Source: Elusimicrobiota bacterium | GTDB taxonomy: Bacteria > Elusimicrobiota > Elusimicrobia > JACQPE01 | Reading direction: 5' to 3' | Length of the DNA: 64,000 bases | Assembly: GCA_042563375.1 (NCBI GenBank) | Contig: JBHPMF010000005.1 | Location: forward strand, 3,568 to 67,567 | Shown here: piece by piece, positions 5,867 through 61,800 of the stretch | How positions within the stretch are numbered: the first letter of the stretch is position 1 | Layout of the letters: every line of letters starts with the position of its first letter | Translations under genes and position numbers: made by a program | The notes under the pieces: model-generated | Databases searched by the model: none | Told to the model about the DNA's origin: nothing | Seen by the model: the letters and a program-made list of their open reading frames with translations, nothing else

Positions 5867-28357
<22,491 letters not shown>

Positions 28358-28362
28358 CTCTT

Positions 28363-28443
28363 AAGTCATTCCTTCTCTTCGCCCTCATCCCCGCTGCAGT
28401 TTTCCTGGCCGCTCTCAGCCTCCCCGGCATCAGCGAAGCCGCG
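28363..28443 (+). repeat. Conserved TM/signal-like element H9, in the ORF2 frame but upstream of the ORF2 ATG
   Basis: KSFLLFALIPAAVFLAALSLPGISEAA is encoded immediately 5' of ATG 28444. There is no ATG, GTG or TTG in this frame between the stop at 28285-28287 and 28444. Confidence 0.8.
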
Positions 28444-31400
28444 ATGGCCGTCAGTGACTCCTCCTCCGGATTCCTTTCTTTTCTTTCTCCTCAGCTTTTT
28501 CCACCTCCCCTCTCTGTCATCCTGCGTGTCCTCCATAGCTTTAGCGACGGAGGGAACTTGATTCCGGATCTCTTCTCTTTTTCCCCCTCATTATTCGCCT
28601 TATCTCTTTTTTCATCCCTCAGCCCTCAGCCCTCAGCCCTTCTTGGCCTCGGTCTCCTAGCTATGGTCCAAACCAAAAAAACACTCCCGTCTCCTTATGA
28701 CATTCCCGCGGATTCCCCGGAACAAAGACAAAAAATCGCACAAGCAGCGCTTTTTTTAAGCATGTGGATACCGGCTGTAGAATCCTCGGATATAGGCGTA
28801 AGAGCAGGCGCTCTTTCGGGCGCGGGCGAACTCATCCAGATCTTTCCTGAAAAAAAAGAGTGGATGTTTGAGCTCGTGAAAAAAGGAGTGAATAGCACGA
28901 AACCCGTAAGTCGCGCTGCTCTTACAAGTCTTGGGAAAATAGCTCGGGTCATGCCCGAGAAGGCTGATGAGATCCTGGATATATTGCGCAAGGGGATGCG
29001 GATGAATGACTGGCATGTGCGCCAAGCCGCTGCCTTGGGTCTCGGAAGCGCAGCACAGGTCATGCCTGAGAAGGCAGACGTGATCTGGGAAATCATGACC
29101 ACGTCGATGAAAGACGTTAGCGCATATCAACAAACCGCTTTTGCGAGCCTTGGAGGGATAGCTCGAGCCATGCCGGATAAACAAGATGAGATTCTTGCAA
29201 TACTCAAGAGGGGGATGCAGCATACCGATTGGTATGTTCAAAGAGCTGCCGGCTTAAGTGTTAAGGATATCGTCCAGTCTATGCCCAATAAGGCAGAAGA
29301 GATTTTTTATATGACAACGAAGATAGAAGAAGAGGGGGCTATGATCGGAGTTTTTGCGGGACTAGGCGCAATAGCGCAGGCTATGCCCGAGAGAAAAGCA
29401 AAGTTTTGGGATATGGTGAGCAAGGGAATGAAAGGCGCTTGGTATATGCGGCAAGCTACCCTCTTCGGTCTTGAGCACATGGTTCAGGCGATGCCCGATA
29501 AAGCGGTGGAGATTTTAGATATTGTGAGCAATGCGATGGAGTCCAGTAACTCTGAAACGCAGGAAGGCGCTGTATCAGTTCTTGGGAGTTTGGCTCGATC
29601 TCTGCCTGAGAAGTCAGAAGAGATATGGAAACTGATGAAGAGGGGGATGAAGGATGAGAGTTCGAAGGTGCAGCAAACCGCTGTCTCAAACCTTAGAGAA
29701 ATAGTTCGGGCTATGCCTGAGAAGGAGGGCGAGTTCCTGGATATGGTGAAAAAGGGCATGACGGGCACTGGCTTAAAATCGTGGCAAGCTGCTTTTGTTC
29801 TTGGAGAAATGGCACAGATATTGGATCCGACTTCCCTGAGAGACTTATGGAGCTATGTAGAGCAGAATGTTCCGGACCCGAAACTCCGCATCCATGCTTA
29901 CCAAGCTGTTTCACACATAGCGGATGAAACTTCCGACAAAGACATGGGTATCGCAGCAATGATCCAGAGTAAAAGCATGCCTGATATTCTCTCGGATATC
30001 CTCCCGGATTCCCCGGAGCAAAGACAAAAAATCGCGCAAGCAGCGCGCTTTTTAGGCATGTGGGCATCTGCCATGGAATCTCCGGATGAAGATGTGAGAG
30101 TCGGGGCTCTTTCCTCATTACGCGAGTTGGCGCAAGTTATCCCTGAGCAAAGGTCCTGGATGTTCGAGATGGCGAAAAAAGGAATGGAGGATGACAGCGC
30201 GCGCATATGGCATACAGCCCTGTTGGTCCTTGCGGATATGACCCGATCCATGCCTGATAAAGCAGATGAGATCTGGGAGATAGTGAACAAGGAAATAAAA
30301 AACAGTGACCGGCGAATTCGGCAAACCGCCATCTTAAGCCTTGGGAGCCTGGCCGAAACAATGCCCGGAAAGTCAGATGAGATCCTGGAAATAGTGGGCA
30401 AAGAGATCAATGATGATGACTGGAAAATACGTAAGACCGCTGTTTCGGTCCTTGAGAGCATGGCTCGATCCATGCCTGAGAGATCGGATGACATCTGGAA
30501 GATGGCGATAAAAGCCATGGAAGATGAAGATGGATATGTTCGCCAGGAAGCTGTTGTCGGCCTTATATCCCGAGTCATGCCTGAGAAGGCAGAAGAGATC
30601 TGGGAGATAGCGAAAAAAGCGATGCAGGATGATGACTGGCATAAGCGCCAAGCTATTGTTTCAAGATTGGGAGATATAGCGCGAATCATGCCTGATAAAG
30701 CAAAAAAAATCTGGGAAATGGCACGCAAAGGGATGGAAGACAATGACTGGAGAGTGCGCCGAGCTGCTGCCTCAAGCCTTGGCGACATGGTTCAAACCAT
30801 GCCTGGAAATTCAAGCATGATTTGGAAGATAGCGAGTAAGGGGATGGAGGATGCTATATGGCTTGTGCGCGAAGCCGCTTTCTCAAGCCTTGGAGGCATA
30901 GTCCAAGTTATGCCTAAAAAGAGAGATGATATTTGGAGGATGGTAAGGGAAAGCATGAAAAAGTCTGATTTGTACGAGAACAGGTCCAAACAACGAGCTG
31001 TTCTTTCAAATCTGGGAGACATAGTCCGAGCCATGCCTGAAAAAGCAGAAGATATTTGGGAAATAGTAAGTAAAGAAATGTGGTACGCTGACCCGGATAC
31101 GCGCCGGGCTGCTGTTTCAATCCTGGGAGACATAGCCCAAGGCATGCCCGAGAAAACAAATGAGATTTTGGAAATGCTAGTCAAGGAAATGGGGAGTTTT
31201 AACGGGCATACGCGCCAGGCTGCTGCCTCAAGCCTTTGGGATATAGCCAAAGCCATGCCCGAGAGAGCAGATGAGATTTTGGAGATAGTGAGCAGTAAGA
31301 TACAGCATGGTGATCGGTACGTACACCAAGCTGTTGCCTTAAGTTTCGGGGACATGGCTCAGGCATCGGATCACGCTTCTTTAAGGGAGTTATGGCACTA

Positions 31401-34400: not shown

Positions 34401-37400
34401 TTCTTCCCCATTAAGACTCGAAGTGACCGATGACCCTTCTGCCATGATCCTCATGGGAGCAGAGCCCATGCCCACATGCCAGAACTGCAAGGAGGAGAAA
34501 GGCCATACAAAGAAAGGAGAGCTTGTAAACAGATTAAGACTCGGACAGGTAAAGTTGGCCAATATTTACCAGGAAAACACTCTTGTTGCAAGAACAGTGG
34601 TTGAAGCTGGATTCAATGATAAAGGTAAACCAGCTCTTCTTGTTGAAAGACTCTACACTCTCCCCGGCAAGAAGCTAGGGGTAAGCGAGATAGAGTCTCT
34701 TATTATGTCATTTGCCGTTCATTTAAAGGCAGAAACAGTGTTCTGGGGAAACGGTCATAGTACATGGTCTTTGAAAAACCAGAAAACACAGACAAAACCC
34801 TACAAGCTCCTCCCCCAGCGCGGCCTCAAGATCTACAGGGACAGCTTCGGCAAGGACGGAGGAAAAGCTGTTTCTGTTCCTATAATTAAGAATTCAAAAT
34901 TAAGAATTAAAAATTATTCTTTTCTACCCTGGTTCCTCGCCCCTGCCATAGCCCTCCTCGCCTTCCTCGGCATCCCCGGCGCAAGCGAAGCAGCATCGAG
35001 CGTCAGTGAATCTGTTTTAAATTTCTCCTTCCTTTCTTCTTCTGTCATTCCTGCGAAAGCAGGAATCCAGACCCTCTTCTCTTTTTCTTTATCACTTTTG
35101 TCACTTTCCCTGATCCCCCTCCTCGCCATGGTCCAAGCCAAAAAAGCGCCCATGGATCTTTCCGATATCCCCGCGGATTCCCCGGAACAAAGACAAAAAA
35201 TCGCACAAGCAGCGCTTTTTTTAAGCATGTGGATACCGGCTGTAGAATCCTCGGATATAAGCGTAAGAGCAGGCGCTCTTTCGGGCGTAGGCGAACTCAT
35301 CCAGATCTTCCCTGAAAAAAAGCAGTGGATGTTTGAGCTTGTGAAAAAAGGAGTTAATAACTCACGCCTCGCCTTTGAGACCATTACGAAACCCGTAAGT
35401 CGCGCTGCTCTTACAAGTCTTGGGAAAATAGCTCGGGTCATGCCCGAGAAGGCTGATGAGATCCTGGATATATTGCGCAAGGGGATGCGGATGAATGACT
35501 GGCATGTGCGCCAAGCCGCTGCCTTGAGTCTCGGAAGCGTAGCACAGGTCATGCCTGAGAAGGCAGACGTGATCTGGGAAATCATGACTACGTCGATGAA
35601 AGACATTAGCGCATATCAACAAACCGCTTTTGCGAGCCTTGGAGGGATAGCTCAAGCCATGCCGGATAAGCAAGATGAGATTCTGGCAATACTCAAGAGG
35701 GGGATGCAGCATACTGATTGGCATGTTCAAAAAGCTGCTGGTTTAAGCCTTGGGGACATAATCCAGGCCATGCCTGAGAAGGCAGAAGAGATTTTTGATA
35801 TGGCAGAGAAGATAAGAGCTGATCACGAGGACTCTTTGGGAGCTTTCGCAGGCCTTGGAGGAATAGTCCAAGCCATGCCTGAAAAGAGAGCAGATATCTG
35901 GGATATGGTGAATAAGGGCATGCGCGGCGCCTGGTATGTGCGCCAGGCTACTTTCTTTGGTCTTAAGCACATGGTTACTGCCATGCCTGAGAAAGCGGAA
36001 GAGATCTTTGATCTTGTGGCCAAGGGAATGAGGTCCCGCAATCTTGATGTACAGATAGCCGCGGCATCAGTTCTTGGGAGTTTGGCCCAGGCTCTGCCCG
36101 AGAAGTCGGATGAGATCTGGGAATTGGCGAAGATCGGAGTGGAAGATGATGCATGGAAAGTACGGCAATCCGCTATCTCGAGCCTTGGACAAATAGTCCG
36201 GGCTGAGCCGAAAAGGGCAGGCGAGATCCTGGATCTGGTGAACAGGAGCATAACAGACCCTGGACTGGAAGCATGGCAAGACGTTCTTGGGGAGATGGCT
36301 CATTTACTCGATCCCGCTTCCATTAGAGATGTATGGAGCCATGTTGAGCATAAAGTAGCGGACCCCCGGCTTCGCGTCCATGCTTTAGAAGCTGTTTCGC
36401 ACATGATGAATGAAACTTCGGGCAAGGATACGGATATTGCGGTGATGATCCGGGATGAAAACACGCGAGAAGCTTTCCCTGATATTTATATGGACTCACA
36501 GGAACAGAGACAGGAGATCACACGGGCAGCGCGTTTTCTAAGCATGTGGATACAAGCCTCTGAAAGCGCAGACGCAAGCATAAAAGTGGGCGCTCTATCC
36601 GCATCGGGCAAGGTTGCGCAACACCTACCAGAGGAAGCAAGACCCTGGATGCTGGAAATGGTTAAAGGGGGCGTGGAAGATGCTGATCAAAGAGTGCGGC
36701 AAGCCGCTATGCTAAGCATGATCATACTGGCTCAAGTCATACCGGAAAGGGCGGGTGAGATTTGGGAAATGGCTAAAGATGGCATGGGAGATGCTGACTG
36801 GAGCGTGCGCCGAGCCGCTGCTTCAACACTGGGCAGTATGTTCAAGCATATGCCGGAAAGGGCAGATGAGATTTGGGAAATGGTTAAAAGGGACAGGGAA
36901 AACAGTGACCGGGATGTGCGGCAAGCCGCTATCCTAAACCTGGATAGCATGGTTCAGCATATGCCGGAAAGGGCGGGTGAGATTTGGGAAATGGCTAAAG
37001 CGGGGATGGAAGATGATGATTGGCATGTGCGCGAAGCCGCTGCTTTAAGCCTGGGCAGCATAGCTCGAGCCATGCCGGAGAAGTCAGATGAGATTTTTAG
37101 AGTGGTCAAAAAAGGTATGAGGGATGATGTTCGGTCTGTGCAAGAAGCCTCTGCGTTAAATCTGGGCGACTTAGCTGCTGCCATGCCGCAGAAAGCAGAT
37201 GAGATTTTGAAAATGGTTAAAGAGGATGCGCAAGACAATAGCCTGTATGTACAGAGAGCCGCTGTTTTAACGCTTGGAAGCCTGGCTGCTGCCATGCCGG
37301 AGAATGCTGATGAGATTTGGGAGATGGCTAAAAAGAGCATGGGAAATAATAACTGGCGCGTGCGCCAAGCAGCTGTTTCAAACCTTGGTATGCTGGCTCA

Positions 37401-40400
37401 AGCCATGCCGCATAGGGCGAATGAGATTTGGGAAATGATCACAAGAGAGATGGGAGATGATTACTGGGTCATGCGCTATGCCGCTGCTTCAGCGCTGGGT
37501 AGCATGGTTAAGGCCATGCCGGAGAAAGCAGATGAGATCTTGGAAATGATTAAAAAGGGCGTGGAAGACAATAGTTGGGATGTGCGGCAAGCCGCTGTTT
37601 CAGCGTTGGGAGACGTAATGCAAACAACGAACCCTTCCTCCCTGCGGGCCCTATTGGACTATACGCGGCAAAGAGTTCCCCGCGCAAAGCTCCACTCTCA
37701 CGCCTTAAAAGTCATATCACGTTTGGCAAAGGAATCTTCCGGCTGGAAAAAGACCCTTTCCAAGGATTACCTCCCTATTTTCCAGGGTATCTCTTCAATG
37801 CTGAAAAAAATAGAGCCTGAAAGGCAGGAGATCATTGTTGCCCTGGATATCGAGGGTAAAACCAAGAGAAGCTTTTTGAAAAACTTGAGCGTGCAGGAAC
37901 TAAAGGCCATGGCCTATCTGGAAAGACTGCGCAATCCTGATCTGGCCCCAAGCCTGGAACGCCTGGAAGAACTTCTCAAAAATAGAAAGATCAGAAAGAG
38001 CAGGGCTGTGCGTAGAGCTTTATGGGGAGTTTTCATCCTCGTAAATAAGAAGGTTATTTCCCCTCGGAACGCTCAAGTTCTTCTGGATGCCATAGATATG
38101 GACAACCTGTCGCAGGCAAGAGATTTCCTTGGGACCCTGGCTTACGGGAATGTCAAGCTTAGGCAGGGTTTTAACCTCGCTGGAGCATTGAGCAATGGTA
38201 AAGCTGATTATCAAACGCTTTTTCAATCATGGCTCGAACATCTGAAAGAAAAACTTCTCAAGGACTTTAATCTGACGAAAGAACAGAAGGATACCCTGGG
38301 CAAGAGCCTTAAAAAGCACCATTCAGCCTGGCTTGAAACCGGACTGCTTTCCAATCTTGTGCTCCACTCGTCTTTTCTCAATGGTACAGGCTTAAAAACC
38401 GTCAAAGCGCTCGTCCTTGACCTTGCCCAAAGCCCAGTGAGCAAGGATGGCAGCAGATTTGTGCACAAGAAGCGATATGAAAAGATAAAACAAGCCTTTA
38501 AAAACCACCCCAAATTCCTAAAAGCCTGGATGCAGGAATACTCCTCGCCTCCCCATTCTTCCCCTCGCCCCCTGAGGGAGAGGGCAAGCGAAGCGCGGGT
38601 GAGGGGCACCTCTGCCGATAAAGTTTCCGAAGAACCCATCACTAACTGGCCCATGCACCTAGCCCAAATAAAAGACCACCTCAACATTGAATCAGCGGAT
38701 GAGCTCGAGCGATCTTTCGCTTCCAAGATCAAAGAACTCAAAGAAAAGCTCCAAAGCGATCAAGTAAACGCGGATCTGGAAAGATTCATGCCCCAGGCTG
38801 AGATGCTTTCCAATTATCTGGATGGTTTTATCCCAAGCCTTAAAGTGATAGTCGAGAACTTAGAGCAGAACAGGGCGCCTCCAAAACAAGCAATTTCAAC
38901 GTTATTCCCACTCCTATCCAAACCAGATCTCATGAAGCATGTCCTGCCTGATACCGGGAATACTTTCCAAGATATAAAGAATTTAAATGAAGAGCTTAAA
39001 GCCCTTCAAGCGCCCAAGACTCCAACAAACACTTCCTCCTTGAGACTTGATGTAACCGATGATCCTGCTGTGATGATACTCATGGGGGATGAACCTATGC
39101 CGACGTGCCAGAATTACAAGGAAGCGAAAGGTCATACAAGGAGCGGGGAGCTTGTCAACCGATCAAGGCTTGGGCAGATCAAGCTCGCCAATATTTTCCA
39201 GGGAGGCGTTCTTGTGGCAAGAACAGTAGTCGAGGCGGGGCTTGACGACAAGGGTAAACCGGCTCTTTTTGTTGAAAGACTTTACACCCTCCCCGGGAAG
39301 AAAATAAACATAAGCGAGGTAGAGTCCCTTATTATGTCATACGCCGGCCATATCAGGGCGAATACTGTGTATTGGGGAAACCACCACGGCACCTGGACAC
39401 TGAAAAAACAAAAGACACAGGCAAAATCCTATGAACTGCTTCCCCAGCATGGGCTCAGCATATACCGTGACAGCTTCGGCAAAGACGGAGGAGAAGCCCC
39501 TGCTTCTGTTGTTGCCGCTACCGGAAAAAACAAACGCAAAGGCTCGACCATGCTCCTCCCGCTGATCGCGCTGGCCCTGGCCTCCGGCTTTCTCGCCCTC
39601 CTCGGCCTCCCCGAAGCCGCCAGCGTTGGCTCAGCAGCTGCCATCGAACCTACCCCCTCTGTCATCCTGAACTTGATTCAGGATCTCTTCTTTTTTCCCC
39701 CATCGTTATTCATTCTGCCGCTTCTTTCACTCAGTGCCTTAGTGGCTCAGTGCCTTAGCGGCTTCTTCTCTTCATCATTTCCTTTTTTGGGTCTTGGCAT
39801 AGTCACTTCCGCGATGATCCCGCCCTCTCTGCATTCAATTCTTTCCTGGCTCAAAGCATTATCATCCATAGATCCAAAGACAGCACAGAGCAAGCGCAAG
39901 CAATCCAAAATCCGGAAGTTAAGACAACTCATATCTGAGCGAGACCCGAAGATCTGGGACAAGCAGGTCTATGTCGGGACGATCGGGGCAGGCGAAAGAA
40001 GCACATGGAATCCCGAAGGATTCTCTTTTCCATGGGGTATTACGCTAGACGGTCAAGGCAATATATATGTTGCTGATACGCGGGCGAACCGAATACAGAT
40101 GCTTGATAAGAATGGCGAACGCATCAAGACGATAGGAACAGGCAGGCCGACCAAGAGCAAGAATGGTTTTAACGGTCCTGTTGCCGCAGCTTTGGATAAA
40201 CGCGGTAATCTATACGTGTCAGACGCGCAGAACCATCGCGTGCAGAAATTCAGCAAGAACGGCAAGTATTTGGGGATGATGGGCACTGGCAAGATAGAGT
40301 GGGGGAAGGAGGGATTCAACGGTCCCCATGGGATCGCCGTGGATAGCCGCAATAATATCTATATTGCGGATTCAGGCAATAGCAGGATACAGGTATTCGA

Positions 40401-46400: not shown

Positions 46401-48837
46401 CGTCCTCTTGCTCACCTCCATCTTCATGCCCGGCATAAGCGAAGCCGTTCCGCTTTCCAACGAATTCTCTCCCTCCGTCATCCTGAATTTGACTTTGCCG
46501 ATACTTTCCATATTGAGTAAAGGCATGGCGCTGTCCGGTTCTTTTGCTGAGAACAGTATCCAGGATATCTTCTCTTCTCTTTCACCTCGTCACCTCATCA
46601 CCTTATCACCTCATCTATCTTTCTTCCCCCTCCTCGCAGCCGTGGGCCTGAAGAAAACCGCGTTCCTCGACAAACACGGCAGGAAGGTCAGATTTAATCC
46701 CAAGAGGATCAGCTACTCGATCGCGAAATTCGATCCCAAGAAGAAGGATGGGATCATAGTCTCGATGATGGGAGATATGACTCCAAGGATGGTCAAATAT
46801 GATTATCATGATATTATCGATAAATCTCAGTCACATGACAGAAAGCATTGGGCGAGGACTATTAAAGCCAGAGGAGTAAACAACGGCAGGTGGTTCGTTG
46901 TTGTAGACGGACACCGTGTGGCTCCGGGATATGATCATGAAAGCCACGCGAAGTTCAGCAAAGACGGTAAGTATTACGCTGTCATGACCAGCAAGAAGAA
47001 TAAGCATGAATACTATCTGGTGATGGGCCGGACCGATGATATTCTAGGCAGTAAAACCATTGTGAAATTCGACAAGGTCTATAAAGAGCCATGGTTCCTG
47101 GAAGACGGACGACTTGTCCTCAACGCAGAGTTCGAAGGAATAAAGGGCGACTGGGAGATCAATATCCTGTCAAAGCGCGAGGTTGGCAAGCTGAAAAGAC
47201 AGATAAAGAAAGAAAATCGCAAACTAAACAAGGTCCCAAGGGTTGATAAGTCCAAAAGAAAAACCCGCAAAAAAGTGAGGTTCTCCGCTATCGGCAAAGC
47301 GCTCAAAGAGCAGTTGGGAAGGATAACAGGAAAAGGCTCCTCTGGTCCCGCATTCCGGATTTCAGGGAAGGGGTTGACAAAAAAGCAGCATAAGGCGATC
47401 AACCTGCTGATAGAGCAAGCTTTCAGGCAGGATGCGGTAACGCTTCTGCATCCCTCTGAGCAATTAAAGGAAGCTCTCCTTAAATACAGGAAGGAGAGCA
47501 CTAATGCCTCATGGAACGAGGTCTTGTATCAGATACAGTCGAATGAGGATGAAGAATACCTGGAATATGATCCTGAAGGCGAATATCTCGCTAATGGCAC
47601 GCAAGTTTATGTTATCAGCGCCGGAGAACGTGCCATAGAGATGTATTCGAAGTATGTCGGCGTGAGCGCGCCTGTTGACTTGGCAGTCCATGCAGGAAGA
47701 TCAAGAAACCAGGTCTATTATTTCGGCCATCAAAAACAGCTTGTGCGGGATCTTTCGGAGCATGAGCGAAAGCTGATAGCCAGGCATGAGGTGGAACATA
47801 TAAAAAATCCGGATAAATCGGAGAAAGAAATAAAAGCTATCGCTCCATTGCCGGAAAGGATAAGCATTGAGAAAAGCCAATGGTACTTCAATTTTGAAGC
47901 TGAAGAGATGTTCAAAGAAATGATGCTTAAGAAGCTGGAAACGCTTCCGCATGCCAACAAGCATGCACAGCTGTATAGATCAGGAAGATTAAAGATCTCG
48001 ATCGAGAAGATCGGTAGCGGCGCATTTGGTCAATTTGACTCTTCCAATCCATCATGGGTATCTCTGAACGAGAATGCTATAGGAAATACCATCAGAGATC
48101 TGATGGTATTGGGTTATTCTGAAAAGCAAGCGCTTGAATACGCCAGCTGGTTGTGGGTCACGACATTGATACATGAAGCTCAGCACAGGCTGCAATACAG
48201 CGAGATCGCGAGGATCACAGGCCATAATCCGAGTTATGCAATAGAAAGCGAGATAGGCGCGCATGCTGCTGAGGTGGTTCTTGCTAACACAGTACTGAGA
48301 TCGCTCCCGGCAGATGTCCGGTGGACTCAGATCGGGCAGGCAAAAGAATCCTCTTTTGCAGCTTATGAGCGCGGTCCGGCGAATTTTAAAGAATATGTTG
48401 TTTCAATGCATCCCTCCTTTCCTTCCCTTGATGACGTGAGCGCGTCATGGGTACCCAAACTTAATGCCTACTATGAGAGCGAATTCAAGGAATATGAAAG
48501 AATTTTTGAAGATGTCAGGCTGAAACCGAGTTTTATTTCCATGTTTCTGATCAATCCGCGTCCTTCGAAGGTGTATGGCGCGATGTCCAAGTATCAAAAA
48601 AAGCAGGCAAGTAAGGCCCTGAAAGAGTTTATGATCGGGAGTGAAAAATTGGGCAGGGGCCTATATTCCAAGAGCGTGAATGGCAAATGGCAGTTAATAG
48701 TGCAGATTAACCCCAGAAACGGGTTTGGAAGCGTCTTATATCTCGGCCCAAAGAAATCCTACACGCCGAAAAAGAGTATCGGAAAGAAGCCTTCAGCCAA
48801 AAAACACCCCCGCCGCAAAACCGCAAAACAAATCTAA
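28444..48837 (+). CDS. Giant modular protein, part 2 (6,797 aa as annotated; probably continuous with ORF1)
   Basis: Uninterrupted 20.4-kb ORF with HEAT, NHL, WD40-like and HExxH modules all in frame. No Shine-Dalgarno lies before ATG 28444, and the annotated N-terminus (MAVSDSSSGF) lacks a signal. Confidence 0.9.
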   Translation: MAVSDSSSGFLSFLSPQLFPPPLSVILRVLHSFSDGGNLIPDLFSFSPSLFALSLFSSLSPQPSALLGLGLLAMVQTKKTLPSPYDIPADSPEQRQKIAQAALFLSMWIPAVESSDIGVRAGALSGAGELIQIFPEKKEWMFELVKKGVNSTKPVSRAALTSLGKIARVMPEKADEILDILRKGMRMNDWHVRQAAALGLGSAAQVMPEKADVIWEIMTTSMKDVSAYQQTAFASLGGIARAMPDKQDEILAILKRGMQHTDWYVQRAAGLSVKDIVQSMPNKAEEIFYMTTKIEEEGAMIGVFAGLGAIAQAMPERKAKFWDMVSKGMKGAWYMRQATLFGLEHMVQAMPDKAVEILDIVSNAMESSNSETQEGAVSVLGSLARSLPEKSEEIWKLMKRGMKDESSKVQQTAVSNLREIVRAMPEKEGEFLDMVKKGMTGTGLKSWQAAFVLGEMAQILDPTSLRDLWSYVEQNVPDPKLRIHAYQAVSHIADETSDKDMGIAAMIQSKSMPDILSDILPDSPEQRQKIAQAARFLGMWASAMESPDEDVRVGALSSLRELAQVIPEQRSWMFEMAKKGMEDDSARIWHTALLVLADMTRSMPDKADEIWEIVNKEIKNSDRRIRQTAILSLGSLAETMPGKSDEILEIVGKEINDDDWKIRKTAVSVLESMARSMPERSDDIWKMAIKAMEDEDGYVRQEAVVGLISRVMPEKAEEIWEIAKKAMQDDDWHKRQAIVSRLGDIARIMPDKAKKIWEMARKGMEDNDWRVRRAAASSLGDMVQTMPGNSSMIWKIASKGMEDAIWLVREAAFSSLGGIVQVMPKKRDDIWRMVRESMKKSDLYENRSKQRAVLSNLGDIVRAMPEKAEDIWEIVSKEMWYADPDTRRAAVSILGDIAQGMPEKTNEILEMLVKEMGSFNGHTRQAAASSLWDIAKAMPERADEILEIVSSKIQHGDRYVHQAVALSFGDMAQASDHASLRELWHYVQQNVPDPKLRIHAYQTVSHIADRTSGKDMAQDKNMSAAFPGIPMDSPEQGQKTAQAARFLSMWVDSMESSDENIKDAVLFSLGKLVRIFPEQGARMFEMVREGMGSDDWNARQAALSSLAGMAQVMPEKADEILNMVDEGTRDVFEPAQKAALSSLADIAKILPEKLGRILEIVNREMRNQRDPKMQQAAGSVFRNIALSMPERGEEIWETVIRNMKDDDRTVRNTAFLSLGSIARTLPEKAEEIWKLAHGEMKNNYMIARKAAFSNFGDIARVMPEKAEEIRKIVVEEIKDDDPHTRKIAFSILSDLAPILPEKAGEMLVMAGKGLEDKDSRVRMAAVLSLGHIAKAMPGSPEEILDMARKGLGDNFDDVRIAAFSILGNVAEILPEKADEILEIVSKGMKEDNWDLRHAAVSSLGDIARALPEKSEEILNIVDKGMEADEWQTQQASALSLGSIVPVMSDKSEKIWEMTEKAMRDPDMHEEQAILLSLGNIARTMPEKTGEILDMVSKSMENDDWSVQRTAIISLGDILLALEPESLKALWSYTQRAVSDVRLYNRAYEIMSRMTKESANWQEDFSETYLPIFQNASSMLKKIEPEKQEIIVSLEIEGKTKRSFLKALSAQELKAMAYLERLRDPALAPALGHLEELLKLKMVRKKRSALRALWGVFVLVNKEVISPKNAQNLLSSITKDNLPHAKDLLSSMAYGNADLRQGFDLDKLLDDNDADYHSLLGSWLKHLKEKLFKNFDLTQDQKKILEKSLKDNPSAWLESGLFSSLALHASFLEKEGLRSLKALVLDLTQSPASEDKDRFVYKKRYAEVEKAFKDHPKFLKAWMQEYVSSPSSSFPSPLEGEGRVRGPSSNKVSEEPTINWAQHLAQIKDHLGIKTADDIEQAFAFKTKDLKEKLSSDQVSEDLQRFISQAPMLSNYLDGFIPSLKVIVENLEQNRAPPKEAVSTLLPLLSKPDLMKHVLPDAGNTFTDIKNLNTEIKAFNAPKTRENSSPLRLEVTDDPSAMILMGAEPMPTCQNCKEEKGHTKKGELVNRLRLGQVKLANIYQENTLVARTVVEAGFNDKGKPALLVERLYTLPGKKLGVSEIESLIMSFAVHLKAETVFWGNGHSTWSLKNQKTQTKPYKLLPQRGLKIYRDSFGKDGGKAVSVPIIKNSKLRIKNYSFLPWFLAPAIALLAFLGIPGASEAASSVSESVLNFSFLSSSVIPAKAGIQTLFSFSLSLLSLSLIPLLAMVQAKKAPMDLSDIPADSPEQRQKIAQAALFLSMWIPAVESSDISVRAGALSGVGELIQIFPEKKQWMFELVKKGVNNSRLAFETITKPVSRAALTSLGKIARVMPEKADEILDILRKGMRMNDWHVRQAAALSLGSVAQVMPEKADVIWEIMTTSMKDISAYQQTAFASLGGIAQAMPDKQDEILAILKRGMQHTDWHVQKAAGLSLGDIIQAMPEKAEEIFDMAEKIRADHEDSLGAFAGLGGIVQAMPEKRADIWDMVNKGMRGAWYVRQATFFGLKHMVTAMPEKAEEIFDLVAKGMRSRNLDVQIAAASVLGSLAQALPEKSDEIWELAKIGVEDDAWKVRQSAISSLGQIVRAEPKRAGEILDLVNRSITDPGLEAWQDVLGEMAHLLDPASIRDVWSHVEHKVADPRLRVHALEAVSHMMNETSGKDTDIAVMIRDENTREAFPDIYMDSQEQRQEITRAARFLSMWIQASESADASIKVGALSASGKVAQHLPEEARPWMLEMVKGGVEDADQRVRQAAMLSMIILAQVIPERAGEIWEMAKDGMGDADWSVRRAAASTLGSMFKHMPERADEIWEMVKRDRENSDRDVRQAAILNLDSMVQHMPERAGEIWEMAKAGMEDDDWHVREAAALSLGSIARAMPEKSDEIFRVVKKGMRDDVRSVQEASALNLGDLAAAMPQKADEILKMVKEDAQDNSLYVQRAAVLTLGSLAAAMPENADEIWEMAKKSMGNNNWRVRQAAVSNLGMLAQAMPHRANEIWEMITREMGDDYWVMRYAAASALGSMVKAMPEKADEILEMIKKGVEDNSWDVRQAAVSALGDVMQTTNPSSLRALLDYTRQRVPRAKLHSHALKVISRLAKESSGWKKTLSKDYLPIFQGISSMLKKIEPERQEIIVALDIEGKTKRSFLKNLSVQELKAMAYLERLRNPDLAPSLERLEELLKNRKIRKSRAVRRALWGVFILVNKKVISPRNAQVLLDAIDMDNLSQARDFLGTLAYGNVKLRQGFNLAGALSNGKADYQTLFQSWLEHLKEKLLKDFNLTKEQKDTLGKSLKKHHSAWLETGLLSNLVLHSSFLNGTGLKTVKALVLDLAQSPVSKDGSRFVHKKRYEKIKQAFKNHPKFLKAWMQEYSSPPHSSPRPLRERASEARVRGTSADKVSEEPITNWPMHLAQIKDHLNIESADELERSFASKIKELKEKLQSDQVNADLERFMPQAEMLSNYLDGFIPSLKVIVENLEQNRAPPKQAISTLFPLLSKPDLMKHVLPDTGNTFQDIKNLNEELKALQAPKTPTNTSSLRLDVTDDPAVMILMGDEPMPTCQNYKEAKGHTRSGELVNRSRLGQIKLANIFQGGVLVARTVVEAGLDDKGKPALFVERLYTLPGKKINISEVESLIMSYAGHIRANTVYWGNHHGTWTLKKQKTQAKSYELLPQHGLSIYRDSFGKDGGEAPASVVAATGKNKRKGSTMLLPLIALALASGFLALLGLPEAASVGSAAAIEPTPSVILNLIQDLFFFPPSLFILPLLSLSALVAQCLSGFFSSSFPFLGLGIVTSAMIPPSLHSILSWLKALSSIDPKTAQSKRKQSKIRKLRQLISERDPKIWDKQVYVGTIGAGERSTWNPEGFSFPWGITLDGQGNIYVADTRANRIQMLDKNGERIKTIGTGRPTKSKNGFNGPVAAALDKRGNLYVSDAQNHRVQKFSKNGKYLGMMGTGKIEWGKEGFNGPHGIAVDSRNNIYIADSGNSRIQVFDENMEYIDMIGTGFIASDNNGFNSPHGIAVDIYDNVYVADTRNHRIQKFDKNWKYVSTIGLGTRTSRKKGLDSPYSIAVDKWGNIYVADAGNQRVQKFGKNGKYLSATGTGEDTARSEEFDDPNGVAVDADGDLYVADTSNHRIQSYALLANMLIPELLKMPESEWGRLLDRIETLIVSHPYFASWLVNSEDIAEALDTLENMSVAIRNMERERRDMILSQEYFPKTDRKFLKTLTVEELRVLVRLERLWNPSVMNDRVMDKLEHLLQQKYVRKKRSALRAVWGAIVLSGTGELSSKNLETAFVSMTKANMNQAKDFFNSLAFGGSGLEEDFDINKAIKNSKQGGIIDFSSAIDLWTAYLSKEMFEDLKFTKKEKNTIKSSLKTRYIAWLSSNFYSNLMIHSSFLNDTNGRRSLKALLLDLAKSPVSKDRERFIYKKRYDQVKKAFRNHPKFLKAWMQEYVSSPSSSFPSPLEGEGRVRGPSSNKVSEEPTINWAQHLAQIKDHLGIESADDIELAFALKTKELKEKLSSDQISEDLEMFMPQAEMLSNYLDGFIPSLKVIVEGLEQNRAPPREAFSTLLPLLSKPDLMKHVLPDASNTFTDIKNLNDEVKALSPPPSLPHQGGGKRQREDNSSLRLEVTDDPSVMLLMGAEPMPTCQDYSELKLQTGNGDLLNRLRLGQIKLANISQGDALVARTVVEAGFDDKGEPALFVERLYTLPGKKIRVSEIESLIMSFAGHLNAETVFWGGGHGTWSLKNQKTQTRSYKLLPQQGLTIYRDSFSKDGGKTVSVPVIKNSKLRIKNYSFLPWVLAPAIALLAFFGLSSIGEAAAMVSRAANAVDAGPLSLLSILVGTLGLGLTGVLGSVMPDAPAHSKEHAEKAIEALKRLNIAATDATAFFSPDSRFMVARLKNNTIKVFDLEAREDMEHLIGLNVRHVSFSLDSKFMIAYSGNLTARVFNLETRVDMGMSIDYAVEEVSFSPNNRFMAVRKLRGGTKVFDLEARGDMERLIGSDARRVFFSPDSRFIIVRYWDATVKVFDLEARKDMERLIGHDVRHASFSPDSRIMVARYEDETAKVFDLEAREDVEIPTGICVQEITFSPDSKFVIARYKDNPAKVFDLETRKDMGIQIGSNIWGISFSPDSRFIVGRYENDTAKVFDLEARNDMEHLIGPNVRKASFSSNGKFMAVIYKDNSAKAFDLEVREDMEHLIGSDARMVFLSPDGRFMAVHSENRTVKIFDLEARESVEMPIGHDVQHVTFSPDSKFMVARYENIPVKVFDLESFLFNPALKQGSKAWRESASFGFELLYLLIKKGIIQKKEGFEDWFSFLLEPIERINEYTTGYNRPHIFKLFQTTDILGFVLENGGDIKTHILFYVDIIRKNKRLALQALEGLFEAIRQGVVSIELSETEQKDILAFTRKTNSFNLFLYRMYQKEGEKGLAEAIRFGETILKDEAGFEEMAAFKQGMAQKGHDAEEVLLAVAQKAIPASGASFVSKGEIKYLFSRYLEAGDRRGDIPKALRKLGRFGGKLIRKIEWRLKKGEVFDPEKKVRVLISKMRYPDSGKDKAQKEKDMEGDRKRFVGELREYLSVIVKSAPPSSRRTSLSVIARSSSDEAIPKAPQAPEIATLHQKNGDSPLAEGRDSPRFSEGAHNNRSVDIPHLLNSFLSYARYNDQLNEKIDAIQTESYTSLDLLDQLFTDKDNLSVLLRKVIGIEFNNDGSKDITNQKKLLKQMKGIWDHKKLTAPEKKEKALRGLMHNYKTDELISKMLTEDLGPALRDAIEKILAQRSTLPIPPSQIIKDLFEEPIETIKAEKAKYKEKVSKDSINLKFQVVKGPAYGLWGLLAGVCIATDLELWKKKNFYLLAMIDEATQEALGFVHLFEENGIEGKKILVIPGIEPSTEFLGQVKARDLYPLIEEAIERIAIEGGFDAVYLPTSPTIHSNRSDIQQLIKKQDYKKLSLGKSISWSAQPAYPISEVYVMWEKSSSPSSSNSKLLLAFLPIVLLLTSIFMPGISEAVPLSNEFSPSVILNLTLPILSILSKGMALSGSFAENSIQDIFSSLSPRHLITLSPHLSFFPLLAAVGLKKTAFLDKHGRKVRFNPKRISYSIAKFDPKKKDGIIVSMMGDMTPRMVKYDYHDIIDKSQSHDRKHWARTIKARGVNNGRWFVVVDGHRVAPGYDHESHAKFSKDGKYYAVMTSKKNKHEYYLVMGRTDDILGSKTIVKFDKVYKEPWFLEDGRLVLNAEFEGIKGDWEINILSKREVGKLKRQIKKENRKLNKVPRVDKSKRKTRKKVRFSAIGKALKEQLGRITGKGSSGPAFRISGKGLTKKQHKAINLLIEQAFRQDAVTLLHPSEQLKEALLKYRKESTNASWNEVLYQIQSNEDEEYLEYDPEGEYLANGTQVYVISAGERAIEMYSKYVGVSAPVDLAVHAGRSRNQVYYFGHQKQLVRDLSEHERKLIARHEVEHIKNPDKSEKEIKAIAPLPERISIEKSQWYFNFEAEEMFKEMMLKKLETLPHANKHAQLYRSGRLKISIEKIGSGAFGQFDSSNPSWVSLNENAIGNTIRDLMVLGYSEKQALEYASWLWVTTLIHEAQHRLQYSEIARITGHNPSYAIESEIGAHAAEVVLANTVLRSLPADVRWTQIGQAKESSFAAYERGPANFKEYVVSMHPSFPSLDDVSASWVPKLNAYYESEFKEYERIFEDVRLKPSFISMFLINPRPSKVYGAMSKYQKKQASKALKEFMIGSEKLGRGLYSKSVNGKWQLIVQINPRNGFGSVLYLGPKKSYTPKKSIGKKPSAKKHPRRKTAKQI
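28690..33010 (+). repeat. Three consecutive HEAT super-arrays (about 38-aa units)
   Basis: Unit MPEKADEILDILRKGMRMNDWHVRQAAALGLGSAAQV. Each array opens with a DSPEQRQKIAQAA.FL.MW header (28711, 30008, 31536) and closes with SL[RK].LW.Y[VT][EQ]..V.D.[KR]L..HAY. Confidence 0.85.
33110..34880 (+). other. Unknown 'T' module, copy 1 of 3
   Basis: About 590 aa, from YLPIFQNASSMLKKIEPEKQEII to IYRDSFGKDGG. Repeated at 37732-39500 and (from FLKTLTVEEL) at 41068-42775. Contains TDDPSAMILMGAEPMPTCQN and FWGNGHSTW. Confidence 0.6.
34915..34995 (+). repeat. Conserved TM/signal-like element H10
   Basis: YSFLPWFLAPAIALLAFLGIPGASEAA, followed by a palindrome-derived spacer and a second helix LSLLSLSLIPLLAMV, then QAKK. 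Confidence 0.8.
35150..37650 (+). repeat. Two further HEAT super-arrays
   Basis: Headers at 35175 and 36493. The stretch 35176-35700 is nearly identical at nucleotide level to 28711-29230, apart from a short insertion (NNSRLAFETIT versus NST). Confidence 0.85.
37732..39500 (+). other. Unknown 'T' module, copy 2
   Basis: Collinear with T1 (YLPIFQGISSMLKKIEPERQEII ... IYRDSFGKDGG). Confidence 0.6.
39544..39624 (+). repeat. Conserved TM/signal-like element H11 (divergent)
   Basis: STMLLPLIALALASGFLALLGLPEAAS, followed by a GTCATCCTGAA palindrome and hydrophobic low-complexity sequence. Confidence 0.7.
39966..40838 (+). repeat. Six NHL repeats (six-bladed beta-propeller)
   Basis: Six units of the form F..P.G[IV]A[VL]D..GN[IL]YVAD..N.R[IV]Q.F, e.g. 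NIYVADTRANRIQML, NLYVSDAQNHRVQKF, NIYIADSGNSRIQVF, NVYVADTRNHRIQKF, NIYVADAGNQRVQKF, DLYVADTSNHRIQSY. Confidence 0.9.
41068..42775 (+). other. Unknown 'T' module, copy 3
   Basis: Collinear with T1 and T2. The stretch 41740-41910 is nearly identical at nucleotide level to 33870-34040. Confidence 0.6.
42805..42885 (+). repeat. Conserved TM/signal-like element H12
   Basis: YSFLPWVLAPAIALLAFFGLSSIGEAA, followed by a second helix LSLLSILVGTLGLGLTGVLGSV. Confidence 0.8.
43078..44244 (+). repeat. Ten tandem 40-aa WD40-like repeats
   Basis: Very regular 120-nt period: FSPDSRF[MI]VARY.D.TAKVFDLEAR.DME.LIG.DVR.. . It matches the WD40 FSPDG...D.T.K.WD pattern, with VFD in place of LWD. Confidence 0.75.
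45170..45340 (+). repeat. In-frame linker built from REP-type palindromes
   Basis: gtcattgcgaggagcagcagcgacgaagcaatc (45208-45248) and gggacagcccc...gggacagtcccc (45291-45335), translated as SVIARSSSDEAIP...GDSPLAEGRDSPRF. Confidence 0.7.
46372..46449 (+). repeat. Conserved TM/signal-like element H13 (divergent)
   Basis: SKLLLAFLPIVLLLTSIFMPGISEAV, followed by a palindrome-derived spacer and a second helix LSFFPLLAAVGL, then KK. Confidence 0.7.
47344..48834 (+). other. HExxH metallopeptidase-like module M2 (C-terminus of ORF2)
   Basis: GPAFRISGKGLTKKQHK ... HEAQH at 48172-48186 ... LYLGPKKSYTPKK. Collinear with M1. A second HExxH (HEVEH) occurs only in this copy. Confidence 0.6.
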
Positions 48838-50187: not shown

Positions 50188-50266
50188 CAGTTAATGGATA
50201 AAAAATCAGCAAATCATAATGGCTCTGCTGAGTATTTTCGAAATCCAAACAAGGAGACAATATAAC

Positions 50267-51415
50267 ATGAATAGGATCATTTCTTTCGGTATCGTAATGC
50301 TTTTCGCGGTTCCCGCAATAGCGGCGAGGACTGGGGACCATGCCAAGGTTGGCAAGTTCTTTGATGGGACTGCTCAAGTCAACGCTGAGGACTCATGTTT
50401 CGATCCGGACAAATATAACATCAACGACATAAACAGGATATTGATGACAGCGGCCGCAGATGGTGACATGAAGAATGTGCGATGCGCATTGGCCGCAGGA
50501 GCCAATGTGAATGCCAGTCTCAATGAATTCACCGAGAAGGGCTATACAGCCTTGATGTTGGCCGTCAGCAATGAGCACCCTGACATCGTCAGCCTGCTGA
50601 TCGACAACGGAGCTGATGTGGATGCCGCAGACAGCGCCGGCAAGACAGCGTTGGCACATGCGACGAAAGAGGGGTCCCTTGAACTCTCAAAACTACTGGT
50701 TAACAATGGCGCTGGCGTGAACAAGGAGGACTATTACGGCAACACAGCCTTGATGTATGCGGCGTATGAGGGATTCGCCGGGATTGCCTCGTTATTGCTA
50801 GACAATGGCGCTGATGTGAACGCGGACAATGAAGCTGGCAGTACAGCCTTGATATATGCAGCGAGACAGGATTCTATTGATATCACAAGGCTTTTGATTG
50901 ACAGCGGCGCTGATCTGGACAAGAAGAACAACCGTGGCAACACAGCATTGATATATGCGGCAAGCAAGGGCTATTATGCCACAGCCGGGCTTTTGATCAA
51001 CAGCGGCGCTAATGTATCAGCAGGGAACCGCCATGAAAAAACAGCGCTGATCTTTACGGCAGAACATGGCCATATTGACATTGCGAAACTTCTGATCAAC
51101 AATGGCGCTAATGTGAACGTGGGAGATGATTTTGGCAAAACAGCGTTGATATACGCATCAGAGAAAGGCTTTGTCAAAACCGTTGGATTCCTGATCGACA
51201 ATGGCGCTAATGTGAATGCAAGAGGTCGTGCCGGTAAAACAGCGCTGATAGAAGCCTCTCTTAATGACCGCTACGAGCCCGTCAGGCTCTTGATCGCCAG
51301 CAATGCGAGCGTGAACATTCGGGACAATCTCGGCAGGACAGCCTTAACATGCGCTGTTCTTAAAGGGTATAGCCCTATTGTCCGGCTGCTTAAAGAGGCA
51401 GGCGGAAAAATATAA
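50267..51415 (+). CDS. Exported ankyrin-repeat protein
   Basis: Start set at the ATG after AAGGAGA (MNRIISFGIVMLFAVPAIAA). About 9 ankyrin units (GNTALMYAA..G...IA.LLLDNGADVNA). Confidence 0.9.
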   Translation: MNRIISFGIVMLFAVPAIAARTGDHAKVGKFFDGTAQVNAEDSCFDPDKYNINDINRILMTAAADGDMKNVRCALAAGANVNASLNEFTEKGYTALMLAVSNEHPDIVSLLIDNGADVDAADSAGKTALAHATKEGSLELSKLLVNNGAGVNKEDYYGNTALMYAAYEGFAGIASLLLDNGADVNADNEAGSTALIYAARQDSIDITRLLIDSGADLDKKNNRGNTALIYAASKGYYATAGLLINSGANVSAGNRHEKTALIFTAEHGHIDIAKLLINNGANVNVGDDFGKTALIYASEKGFVKTVGFLIDNGANVNARGRAGKTALIEASLNDRYEPVRLLIASNASVNIRDNLGRTALTCAVLKGYSPIVRLLKEAGGKI

Positions 51416-57329: not shown

Positions 57330-57923
57330 TCAAAACGTGAACTGGACGCCTACATTAAGCTTGATGCCTGTGTAGTTCATTTCAAAAGGTCTTTCCCCGG
57401 CGGTTATCGCGCTATTCAATGATTTGATATTGACTTCTTCGCTTCCCGGGAGCTGAGAGTCTGCTTTCATGATAAGCTGGCTTAGATCGCTCTCATATTC
57501 GTCGATCGTTGCCATAGGCACCCTTAGCTCGGTCACAACCGATAAGAACTTGTGGAATTTCCACTGCCACCCTGAATACATGTGCCACCCTATGCCGCTG
57601 GCTTTAAAATCCTGAGTTGATTTGGATCCGGTTGTTGAAAAAAGATACTTAACTTTTGCCATATAATAATCAAGGCCCGCTCCGATCCTTAAGCTATGCA
57701 TTCCCGTGCGCTCGATCGGAAATTTATAGTAAAGGCTTACCGGTATGGCGTAGTAGCTTGGCTGAAGCTTGAGGTAAGTGTCTTTGGCTGTGGTTATCGT
57801 GTATTTTTCAGTGAAGGTCTCTGTCCTGTCGTACGTGAGTCCTGTAAAAGCTCCAATTGAGCGCTTGCCGGTAAAATTTCTTTCAAAGCCTATGCGCAGT
57901 TCACCGCCTCCGCCATTGTGCAT
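57330..57923 (-). CDS. Outer-membrane beta-barrel-like domain (probably the C-terminal part of a longer protein)
   Basis: Alternating amphipathic strands and a C-terminal GVQFTF (terminal Phe), typical of OMPs. The annotated N-terminus has no signal peptide, and the frame stays open upstream across 57924-58110 without a start codon. Confidence 0.6.
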   Translation of the reverse strand: MHNGGGGELRIGFERNFTGKRSIGAFTGLTYDRTETFTEKYTITTAKDTYLKLQPSYYAIPVSLYYKFPIERTGMHSLRIGAGLDYYMAKVKYLFSTTGSKSTQDFKASGIGWHMYSGWQWKFHKFLSVVTELRVPMATIDEYESDLSQLIMKADSQLPGSEEVNIKSLNSAITAGERPFEMNYTGIKLNVGVQFTF

Positions 57924-58039
57924 TGAAATGGCGCGCGCGGGCCTGGATTTGGTGATCTTATTGTAGCCTTCGATGTTGGGGTCATTGCCGTCGATGGAAG
58001 AATACGCTCCCAGAAGCGCGAGAGTGAAGCTCCACCTAT

Positions 58040-58567
58040 TTATTTGCGGGTAGGGTCTTTTTTTTGCTTCTTTTTTCTTTTTTTCTTTTTTTCTTTTTTT
58101 TTAGGCTTCTTGGATCTCTTGAGATTTTTTTTGTCCGATATTCCGTGTTTTACAGCGTAGTATTCAAGGATATTTAATTCCCTTTCCACGAAGCTCACAT
58201 CAATCTTGAGCGGGGAAAACTTGTCTCGCAGGAATTCAAGATAGGCGATCCTTTCCAGTATCGGCACGAATTCCACCACCATTTTTCCATAACGGTGTTT
58301 CAATGACATCTCAAGCGCTAATTTGGGATTTTTATCGGACAGCTTGGACCATTCTTCTTTCGCTTTGCTTAAGTTCAGGCTGGATGACTCATACATGATG
58401 AGAAGACGCTCAAGAATATCCAGGCGTTCAGTGCTGTTAGCGCCGTCTTCAACACGTTCCGAATAATACTGCCAATTCGTTTCGAAATTCTTCTGCGTAT
58501 AGGCCGCTGACGCCAGGGGCAGGGCACACAGGGACACAAGCAGGATTGACAAGAATGCCGTGTTCAT
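58040..58567 (-). CDS. Exported helical protein with Lys-rich tail (probably the N-terminal part of the OMP-like protein)
   Basis: Start set at MNTAFLSILLVSLCALPLASA. Ends in KKPKKKEKKKKRKKKQKK, encoded by long A-runs. Confidence 0.6.
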   Translation of the reverse strand: MNTAFLSILLVSLCALPLASAAYTQKNFETNWQYYSERVEDGANSTERLDILERLLIMYESSSLNLSKAKEEWSKLSDKNPKLALEMSLKHRYGKMVVEFVPILERIAYLEFLRDKFSPLKIDVSFVERELNILEYYAVKHGISDKKNLKRSKKPKKKEKKKKRKKKQKKDPTRK

Positions 58568-58629
58568 ATGATGCGCGATGCGTACTGTTAGTCCCACAAT
58601 TAGAATTTAGCGAATTTTTTCTGCATTTT

Positions 58630-59196
58630 CTATATTAATTTAAAAAATTGTTTTCTTGTTTGAGGCGAATGTTTAAGTTTTCCGAGGAAACTGCTTGTCA
58701 CGAATTCCGAGCTCGATGATTTCGCGCCGCGCATCTCAAGGCACATATGCCTTGCTGTGAGCACTACAGCTGTTCCTGACGGCTTAAGGACGTTCTCGAT
58801 CGCCTTGGCTATCTCATGGGTCAGGCGTTCCTGGAGCTGCAGTCTCCTTGCGAACATCTGCACGATCCCGGGTATCTTGGATAATCCTATGATCTTTTTA
58901 TTCGGCAAATAAGCCACATGCGCTTTTCCCCAAAAAGGCAGCATATGATGTTCGCACAATGAATAAAAGGGTATGTCTTTGACCAGCACGATGTCATTTG
59001 AATCCTCGGAAGGGTATATAGCGTTTTTGGTTATCGCGCCCAGGTCCATGGCATAGCCGCTTGTGAGCTCTGAGAGCGCCTGGGCAATGCGCTTTGGAGT
59101 ACGCTTGAGCTCCGGACGATCAGGGTTTTCGCCCACCAGAATAAGCAGATCTCTGGCGATGTCGGTCAGTGATCTGGGACGTGCTTTTGTGTTCAT
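58630..59196 (-). CDS. folE: GTP cyclohydrolase I
   Basis: [15 protein letters not shown] and QERLT signatures. 188 aa. Confidence 0.9.
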
Positions 59197-61786: not shown

Positions 61787-61800
61787 ATGATAACCTCTCT

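Follow-up and report, generated by a model that had tools for sequence, protein, structure and literature searches.

The stretch of DNA considered here (hereinafter, the window) is the whole 64,000-nt segment of contig JBHPMF010000005.1 presented above; its source is a single 75,981-bp NCBI contig, metagenome-derived, from an uncultured Elusimicrobiota bacterium. The window carries two giant open reading frames (ORFs), ORF1 (5867–28357; 7496 aa) and ORF2 (28444–48837; 6797 aa), arranged head-to-tail on the plus strand. Judging from the sequence, they constitute one architectural unit, apparently one modular gene of a giant membrane protein, in which the coding frame changes at a run of nine adenines (A9, 28342–28350) near the end of ORF1. 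The reading that we tentatively favour, with a probability of roughly 45%, is that the A9 run is genuine and is bridged mainly by transcriptional slippage, with a minor ribosomal contribution.

The 3' end of ORF1 reads GCA AAA AAA AAG TCC TGA. As an earlier note on this DNA had described, and as the sequence check confirmed, it contains the A9 run and, in the ORF1 phase, the heptamer A_AAA_AAG (28345–28351), a possible minor site of –1 ribosomal slippage. The stop codon TGA (28355–28357) is situated one codon past the heptamer and 4 nt past the run, and overlaps a CTG of the ORF2 frame (28354–28356, forming CTGA). The ORF2 frame is –1 relative to ORF1; it has a stop at 28285–28287 and is open from 28288, the short window of overlap of the two frames being 28288–28357. 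Codon inspection agreed with the earlier note in that this open frame has no start codon before 28444: there is no ATG, GTG or TTG among the 52 ORF2-frame codons between 28288 and 28443. Upstream of its first ATG (28444–28446) the frame reads SGPRRPPKTRVQAKIPKRKKKVLTLKSFLLFALIPAAVFLAALSLPGISEAA, followed by MAVSD, and the ATG itself aligns with an ordinary internal position of paralogous elements (SEAA/SSVSE, GEAA/AMVSR; the elements are described below). The public gene call (P0001, 6724 aa, MVQTKK...) starts at another ATG, 28663–28665, and omits both hydrophobic segments encoded upstream of it. No sequence resembling a Shine–Dalgarno (SD) site precedes either ATG, as had been claimed for 28444, while clear SDs are present at several other genes of the window, e.g. 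aaaggagaaaaacaaATG. The region between ORF1 and ORF2 was searched for a promoter or a terminator, and neither was found. An A10 run, or a single A added in the mRNA, fuses ORF1 and ORF2, and the junction of the latter kind reads ...FQSAKKK-VLTLKSFLL..., in design indistinguishable from the in-frame boundaries between modules; a –1 shift at the heptamer yields a 14,323-aa fusion product, and the translation thus reproduces the size given in the earlier note.

The position of the frame change could be determined rather precisely. The C-terminal 225 residues of ORF1 align to the native C-termini of ordinary ClpC proteins (KLVFKPKFQSAKKKS, followed by the stop, vs KLTFRKKELSL...), hence frame 0 is coding to about 28330. 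We also applied a codon model trained on ORF1 and ORF2, with scores in bits compared to those of real coding sequence of equal length. Between 28288 and 28341 the ORF1 frame scores +5.5 bits (coding expectation 5.9 ± 3.3) and the ORF2 frame, –6.9 bits; between 28358 and 28443 the ORF2 frame scores +15.3 bits (coding expectation 9.2 ± 3.9), and the two other frames, –0.9 and –21.6 bits. Taken together, the ClpC alignment and the codon model confine the frame change to about 28331–28351, approximately 21 nt, and this interval contains the sole homopolymer of at least 9 bases in the 43 kb of giant-ORF sequence. By our arithmetic, a randomly placed frame break would fall at the run with the probability of about 24/43,000, or approximately 6e-4. 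The frame switch is tied to the A run more closely than expected by chance. The 43 kb contain 14 further A, T or C runs of 7–8 nt, none of them accompanied by a frame break.

The earlier note had also claimed that the stretch downstream of the run encodes a full copy of an element conserved elsewhere inside the ORFs, and this was upheld: the element is complete, and its coding score in the ORF2 frame is the +15.3 bits given above. In all 12 tabulated copies the GLPxx[GS]EAA pattern is kept while synonymous codons differ, the junction copy having a codon set of its own. At the DNA level, the paralogy (89%) of the ORF2 region with the internal module at about 35119 begins only at 28654, hence the junction element is not a recent DNA duplicate. 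The late start of the paralogy, the separate codon set and the coding score led us to reject the idea that the –1 frame before 28444 is open by chance or as a remnant of recent duplication. These patterns indicate that the element is under selection at the protein level, with the junction copy being old and diverged, and that for most of its history the stretch following the A run was read in the ORF2 frame. Since this stretch is coding in the ORF2 frame and the switch occurs at the A run, the two ORFs are one unit. The claim of the earlier note that they form one functional unit thus holds at the level of architecture, on which the ClpC alignment, the codon model and the element agree.

The element comprises a few basic residues, about 21–25 uncharged, mostly hydrophobic residues, and then [FL]-G-[LI]-P-x-x-[GS]-E-A-A. 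Its internal copies number 13: ORF1 has eight and ORF2 four, the remaining one being that of the junction. The N-terminal signal peptide of ORF1 is related to them. In the numbering of the fusion, the –1 residues are 1665, 1980, 2111, 2692, 4311, 4750, 5118, 6770, 7525 (the junction, nt about 28435–28440), 9709, 11252, 12339 and 13527. By inspection, 11 of these 13 show the pattern of a signal peptidase I site, in which [GS]-E-A occupies positions –3 to –1 and a proline precedes it at about –6; the n-region is net positive in ten of the 13. The junction copy (28351–28443, plus strand; VLTLK, SFLLFALIPAAVFLAALSLPGIS, then EA/A in the ORF2 frame) has no canonical start; inspection gives it an n-region of net charge +4, 23 uncharged residues, a proline at –6 and S-E-A/A, that is, the features of a Sec-type signal peptide or anchor. 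It had been counted as the ninth transmembrane element, and is in fact the tenth hydrophobic element in order, as the copy near ORF1 residue 6745 is easily missed. None of the NCBIfam sorting-signal models matched the element at E-values up to 10.

In most of the copies examined, a second hydrophobic stretch with basic residues follows 30–45 residues on. At the junction this is LFSFSPSLFALSLFSSLSPQPSALLGLGLLAMV with QTKK (28570–28668), the proposed return helix of a membrane hairpin, paralogous to LFSFSLSLLSLSLIPLLAMVQAKK within ORF2; the ORF2 N-terminus then carries on with the paralogous module, ..LLAMVQ[TA]KK..DIPADSPEQRQKIAQAALFLSMW. Within the second hydrophobic segment there is a 7-nt tandem repeat (28612–28640; TCAGCCC, 4.1 units). 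Adding or removing a single unit would change the frame, which makes the repeat a second potentially hypermutable site 270 nt past the A9 run.

The modules between the elements are large. Pfam detects HEAT arrays in both ORFs, NHL and WD40 propellers in ORF2 and, at the end of ORF1, a ClpB/ClpC-like double AAA+ unit (AAA_lid_9, AAA_2, ClpB_D2-small). This unit (26534–28351; ORF1 residues about 6890–7495) is about 50% identical to ClpC/ClpB proteins of 750–930 aa; a Clp_N domain was not detected in it. Its native C-terminus (KLVFKPK...) ends at 28330, right before the A run. One hairpin near residue 6745 and another at the junction enclose the unit, so that it appears to be a membrane-tethered Clp ATPase. 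Since the modules flanking the elements (ClpC-like, HEAT) are probably cytoplasmic, the simplest topology would have the large cytoplasmic modules connected by membrane hairpins whose short loops face outside.

In this architecture, large modules (HEAT arrays, the ClpC-like ATPase, beta-propellers) would be strung by hydrophobic hairpins within one giant gene, and the ORF1/ORF2 junction would be one of the module boundaries, differing from the others only by a lysine-coding A9 in place of A10. With A9, ORF1 stops two codons past the run, and the next helix is encoded in the –1 frame without a start codon. If the A9 run is genuine, ORF2 would be reached mainly through RNA polymerase adding one A in a fraction of transcripts, with a small share possibly added by –1 ribosomal slippage at A_AAA_AAG. 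The products would be the 7,496-aa protein and a lesser amount of the 14,323-aa fusion.

We judge RNA polymerase slippage on A9 to be the best-precedented mechanism. The junction has what is expected of poly(A) slippage: A9 at the frame transition, a stop 4 nt on, and a downstream frame that is open, coding, and devoid of a start codon or a ribosome-binding site. Nine nucleotides is the typical length of A/T runs at which selection against slippage becomes apparent in many bacterial genomes, and on the A9 run of Thermus thermophilus dnaX about 50% of the product is the shorter form (PMC1088944). Some dnaX genes form a class in which A7–A10 runs join two ORFs (PMC3711429). In Citrobacter rodentium, tssM1 is split just past an A11 run with no SD or structure near it, and transcriptional slippage rescues it at 20–25%; this gene encodes an inner-membrane protein, and both products are needed (PMC4256274).

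Several observations weigh against the reading of a genuine run bridged by slippage. AAG constitutes 45% of Lys codons, which hints at the presence of tRNA-Lys(CUU), by which the heptamer would become less shifty; such an effect of this tRNA follows from established work on dnaX. There is no tRNA-Lys gene in the 64-kb window. In none of the collections searched did we find an orthologue or a second assembly in which A9 would be conserved. The occurrence of slippage and its proportion are what we infer here, and in a contig assembled from a metagenome, a miscall or a recent indel would produce exactly such a frame break at the longest homopolymer of the giant ORFs. Further, the efficiency of slippage on A9 is strongly organism-dependent (PMC1088944), and a survey covering 1106 genomes ascribed the majority of its unclustered frame transitions to sequencing errors, mutational indels or overlaps between genes (PMC3711429). 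Finally, the genome tolerates another coding A9, which is in frame in a minus-strand ORF (58040–58597).

The latter ORF deserves a separate comment. It encodes a small secreted-looking protein with a Lys-rich tail (KKPKKKEKKKKRKKKQKK) formed by A8, A9, A7, A7 and A8 runs at 58058–58132. Hence long A runs are not strictly avoided in the coding sequence of this genome, and the suggestion that the junction A9 is the only coding 9-nt homopolymer of the window had to be dropped. On the other hand, the same in-frame A9, along with the unbroken A7–A8 runs, makes the rest of the assembly look clean, which favours a genuine A9 at the junction.

This bears directly on the first rival explanation, according to which the true tract, in all or a part of the population, is A10. 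The observed A9 would then be either an error of the assembly (a homopolymer under-call or a consensus artefact) or one length of a phase-variable tract, by which the downstream half of 6.8k aa is turned on and off in the DNA itself. The sole frame break in 43 kb does fall on the longest homopolymer of the giant ORFs, and A10 makes a seamless boundary like the in-frame ones. The evidence comes from one NCBI contig and a single-member protein cluster, most orphan frame transitions are put down to errors, indels and gene overlaps (PMC3711429), long A runs are hypermutable in replication (PMC1088944), and the tandem repeat at 28612–28640 is a second slippery site nearby. However, no other homopolymer-linked break is observed despite the many A7–A8 runs and the other coding A9, and there was no further copy in which a different length could show: a scan of metagenome contigs with a pattern of the exact flanks, 7–12 arbitrary bases standing for the run, retrieved none. 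We consider an A10 or variable tract somewhat unlikely.

If the A9 run is real, it might alternatively result from a recent 1-nt deletion that split the gene. ORF1 would then work minus its C-terminal anchor, and ORF2 would be silent and on its way to a pseudogene, or else translated from 28444 or 28663 without the membrane hairpin. Homopolymer indels are the commonest frameshift mutations, the break, being at a module boundary, does ORF1 the least harm, and the start of ORF2 is indeed put at 28663 in the public gene call. At the same time, neither of the two ATGs has an SD, the element upstream of them is intact and undecayed, and the 6,797 codons of ORF2 contain no stop, as would hardly be expected of a frame silent for long. 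Since A9 should allow some slippage-mediated rescue anyway (PMC1088944, PMC4256274), such a deletion shades into the slippage reading; as an explanation on its own, it seems improbable to us.

A further alternative is that ORF2 is a separate gene translated by termination–reinitiation or from a non-canonical start, with the junction element serving as its own N-terminal signal anchor. There are two suitably placed candidate starts in the ORF2 frame, the CTG at 28354 that overlaps the ORF1 stop (MTLKSFLL...) and an ATT at 28330–28332, which would give MPKRKKKVLTLK... Both lack an SD, whereas other genes here have strong ones, and CTG and ATT are very rare as bacterial starts. The N-terminus of ORF1, MMKMFIRSIAVTLITALLITVPGIAPYQVLAA, demonstrates that a related element can be a true N-terminus; ORF1 ends at a natural ClpC C-terminus; and it is common in the window for genes to overlap or to follow each other closely. 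Nevertheless, each of the other internal copies continues the frame of the sequence before it, with no restart, and upstream of the run the ORF2 frame scores as non-coding. We therefore regard reinitiation as very unlikely.

The heptamer A_AAA_AAG had led the earlier note to a "dnaX-type" label, meaning the efficient programmed –1 ribosomal frameshifting (PRF) of Escherichia coli dnaX, which here would set a fixed ratio of the 7.5k-aa and 14.3k-aa products. In favour of this, the motif conforms to X_XXY_YYZ in the 0-frame phase and is followed one codon later by the 0-frame stop, and a start codon is missing from the –1 ORF. The phase of the heptamer, however, is not independent evidence, because removal of one A from gcA AAA AAA AAA Gtc (A10, fused) necessarily leaves it, and the same in-phase heptamer is found at four more places within ORF2; the weight placed on it was too large. 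Bare motifs do little: the best V_VVA_AAG heptamers without stimulators yield about 0.3% shifting in E. coli (PMC4066793).

The stimulators of dnaX are absent from the junction. Upstream, 28320–28344 reads tcaagccaaaattccaaagcgcaaa, and there is no GGAG, GAGG or AGGA in these 25 nt. Downstream, the fold that the earlier note had proposed to look for does not differ from shuffled sequences, as z = 0.02 for 28352–28450, –0.64 for 28352–28400 and –0.99 for 28352–28490, and thus neither a stem-loop nor a pseudoknot is indicated. The note had mentioned a weak 4-bp hairpin; a weak local hairpin is indeed the only one beside the heptamer, but it has 5 bp (UGACU/AGUCA, 12 nt, –3.7 kcal/mol). An Rfam scan at E-values up to 1 matched no frameshift-element family. 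As both the upstream and the downstream stimulators are missing, membership in the E. coli dnaX class is not supported, and we consider efficient dnaX-type PRF to be the least credible of the explanations, highly improbable as it stands. The three scenarios of the earlier note (frameshifting, A9/A10 phase variation, an under-call) are all possible in principle, but the list omitted RNA polymerase slippage, non-canonical reinitiation and a recent indel.

Comparison with known systems points in the same direction, the geometry resembling IS3-type orfA/orfB or two-ORF dnaX more than E. coli dnaX. The E. coli gene has the identical heptamer, in phase; unlike the junction, it also has an upstream SD-like element and a downstream stem-loop, and its shifted product is short, whereas here it would be long. 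Closer are dnaX of T. thermophilus and the two-ORF dnaX genes (Baranov et al. 2005, PMC1088944; Antonov et al. 2013, PMC3711429), with a sense-strand A run (A9 in Thermus), a nearby stop in the alternative frame and, in the two-ORF type, a longer product that requires realignment on the run. These, however, are conserved across genera and hence "programmed", while no orthologue was found here and the protein family is unrelated. The IS3 and IS1 families express orfA and orfB by –1 PRF or by slippage of transcription on A-rich motifs. Their geometry is likewise one of a short overlap, with a slippery motif where the upstream ORF is about to end, a –1 ORF without a start and a fusion product (PMC4066793, PMC1088944); but IS3 members usually have a downstream pseudoknot or hairpin, and the present locus is not a mobile element, as there are no transposase (DDE) domains, Pfam finding only HEAT, AAA+/ClpB, NHL and WD40.

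C. rodentium tssM1 (and Yersinia pseudotuberculosis tssM3; Gueguen et al. 2014, PMC4256274) is similar in being a gene of a large inner-membrane protein with an early stop past a lysine-coding A run, with no SD-like or structural stimulator nearby and with a downstream part lacking its own start. The differences are in the run (A11 there, A9 here), in the stop (28 nt past the run there, 4 nt here), and in the gene, which here is ten times larger and broken exactly at a module boundary; moreover, truncated and full-length tssM1 products are both made, whereas those of our locus are predicted from the sequence. Contingency loci of phase variation likewise have a mononucleotide run within a gene coding for an envelope-associated protein, the downstream part being switched on or off by a change of ±1 nt; their classical tract, however, is near the 5' end of the gene, and there is no second copy here to show length polymorphism.

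The giant proteins of Omnitrophota and related phyla of the PVC group ("Archaeovorin"-type; West-Roberts et al. 2023 preprint; 2026 Omnitrophota preprint) also exceed 10,000 aa and have many transmembrane helices on HEAT/NHL/WD scaffolds. By contrast, no search retrieved a sequence homologue of ORF1 or ORF2 from any collection, and the preprints describe neither a recurring signal-peptidase-like motif nor frame breaks. Genes of 10,000 aa or more are reported there to be frequent in Elusimicrobiota, and whether the giants are cut into pieces is stated as an open question.

The latter question is relevant to one more variant, in which the A9 run is genuine and selected, and sets the 7.5k-aa/14.3k-aa ratio of a giant polyprotein. 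The 13 internal elements would be signal peptidase I cleavage sites within short periplasmic loops, cutting the polyprotein into about 14 membrane-anchored proteins, and the frame break would be an internal attenuator between the "cistrons" of a translational operon. Counterparts of such processing are known in flaviviruses, by signal peptidase, and in the cytochrome b/c1 precursor of Bradyrhizobium. We consider the polyprotein variant unlikely.

The searches for homologues covered several collections. The ORF2 extension together with the N-terminus had no match in GTDB representative genomes or in a word-indexed search of 5.8 billion proteins; a HMMER search of 1.84 billion representatives retrieved only the sequence itself and generic HEAT-repeat proteins, none of them with the element. 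The C-terminus of ORF1 matched only ordinary ClpC/ClpB proteins, and a profile of the thrice-repeated module end of ORF2 had no match in genomes or metagenomes. Look-ups of neighbouring proteins revealed no other contig of this organism. By PepA, the nearest relatives are Elusimicrobiota metagenome-assembled genomes with 59–61% identity. Two of them, GCA_016180815.1 and GCA_016205025.1, share with the window (57330–63611) the redoxin–acyltransferase pair upstream of PepA and the PepA–IspH–FolE order, while neither giant ORFs nor ankyrin genes are found within 10 kb of these syntenic blocks; hence the giant locus is in a lineage-specific region.

Within the giant ORFs, self-comparison reveals duplication of modules: three module ends of ORF2 are 60–75% identical, and its last module (47300–48837) is 42% identical to ORF1 residues 3360–3845 (15944–17401). 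Nothing significant was found by Pfam in this last module; it has two HExxH motifs (HEVEH, HEAQH), which suggests a zincin-like peptidase. Loops following the hydrophobic elements contain GC-rich palindromic repeats of 38–44 nt, 90–92% identical between copies and translated in frame: 26218–26255 and 39669–39711 (VILNLIQDL), about 26360 (VILNSFQDL), 35044–35070 (VIPAKAGIQ), and 28530–28560 and 14796–14826 (VLHSFSDGG/VSSVALAKGG). They look like small REP/MITE-like insertions tolerated in coding sequence. Directly downstream of the giant ORFs, the genes at 49141 and 50219–51415 encode ankyrin-repeat proteins with signal-peptide-like N-termini, and the genes starting at 49141, 52289 and 53481 have an identical 5' region (aaaggagaaaaacaaATGAAA) and signal peptides.

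For annotation, this means that ORF1 and ORF2 should be treated as one locus, and that the true N-terminal membrane hairpin of ORF2 is upstream of both candidate ATGs, being removed by the public call at 28663. All the candidate events at the junction are of known kinds. If the A9 run is real, the locus would add a new case, of very large size, to the genes that a poly(A) run interrupts. Among proteins with a slippage-dependent full-length form, its product would far exceed all others in size, and it would be an example from outside Proteobacteria, in an uncultured Elusimicrobiota lineage. The context may outweigh the frameshift itself, as a signal-peptidase-like motif conserved at the protein level is situated at every module boundary, and these motifs provide concrete, testable candidate cleavage points for the question of whether giant bacterial proteins are cut into smaller ones.

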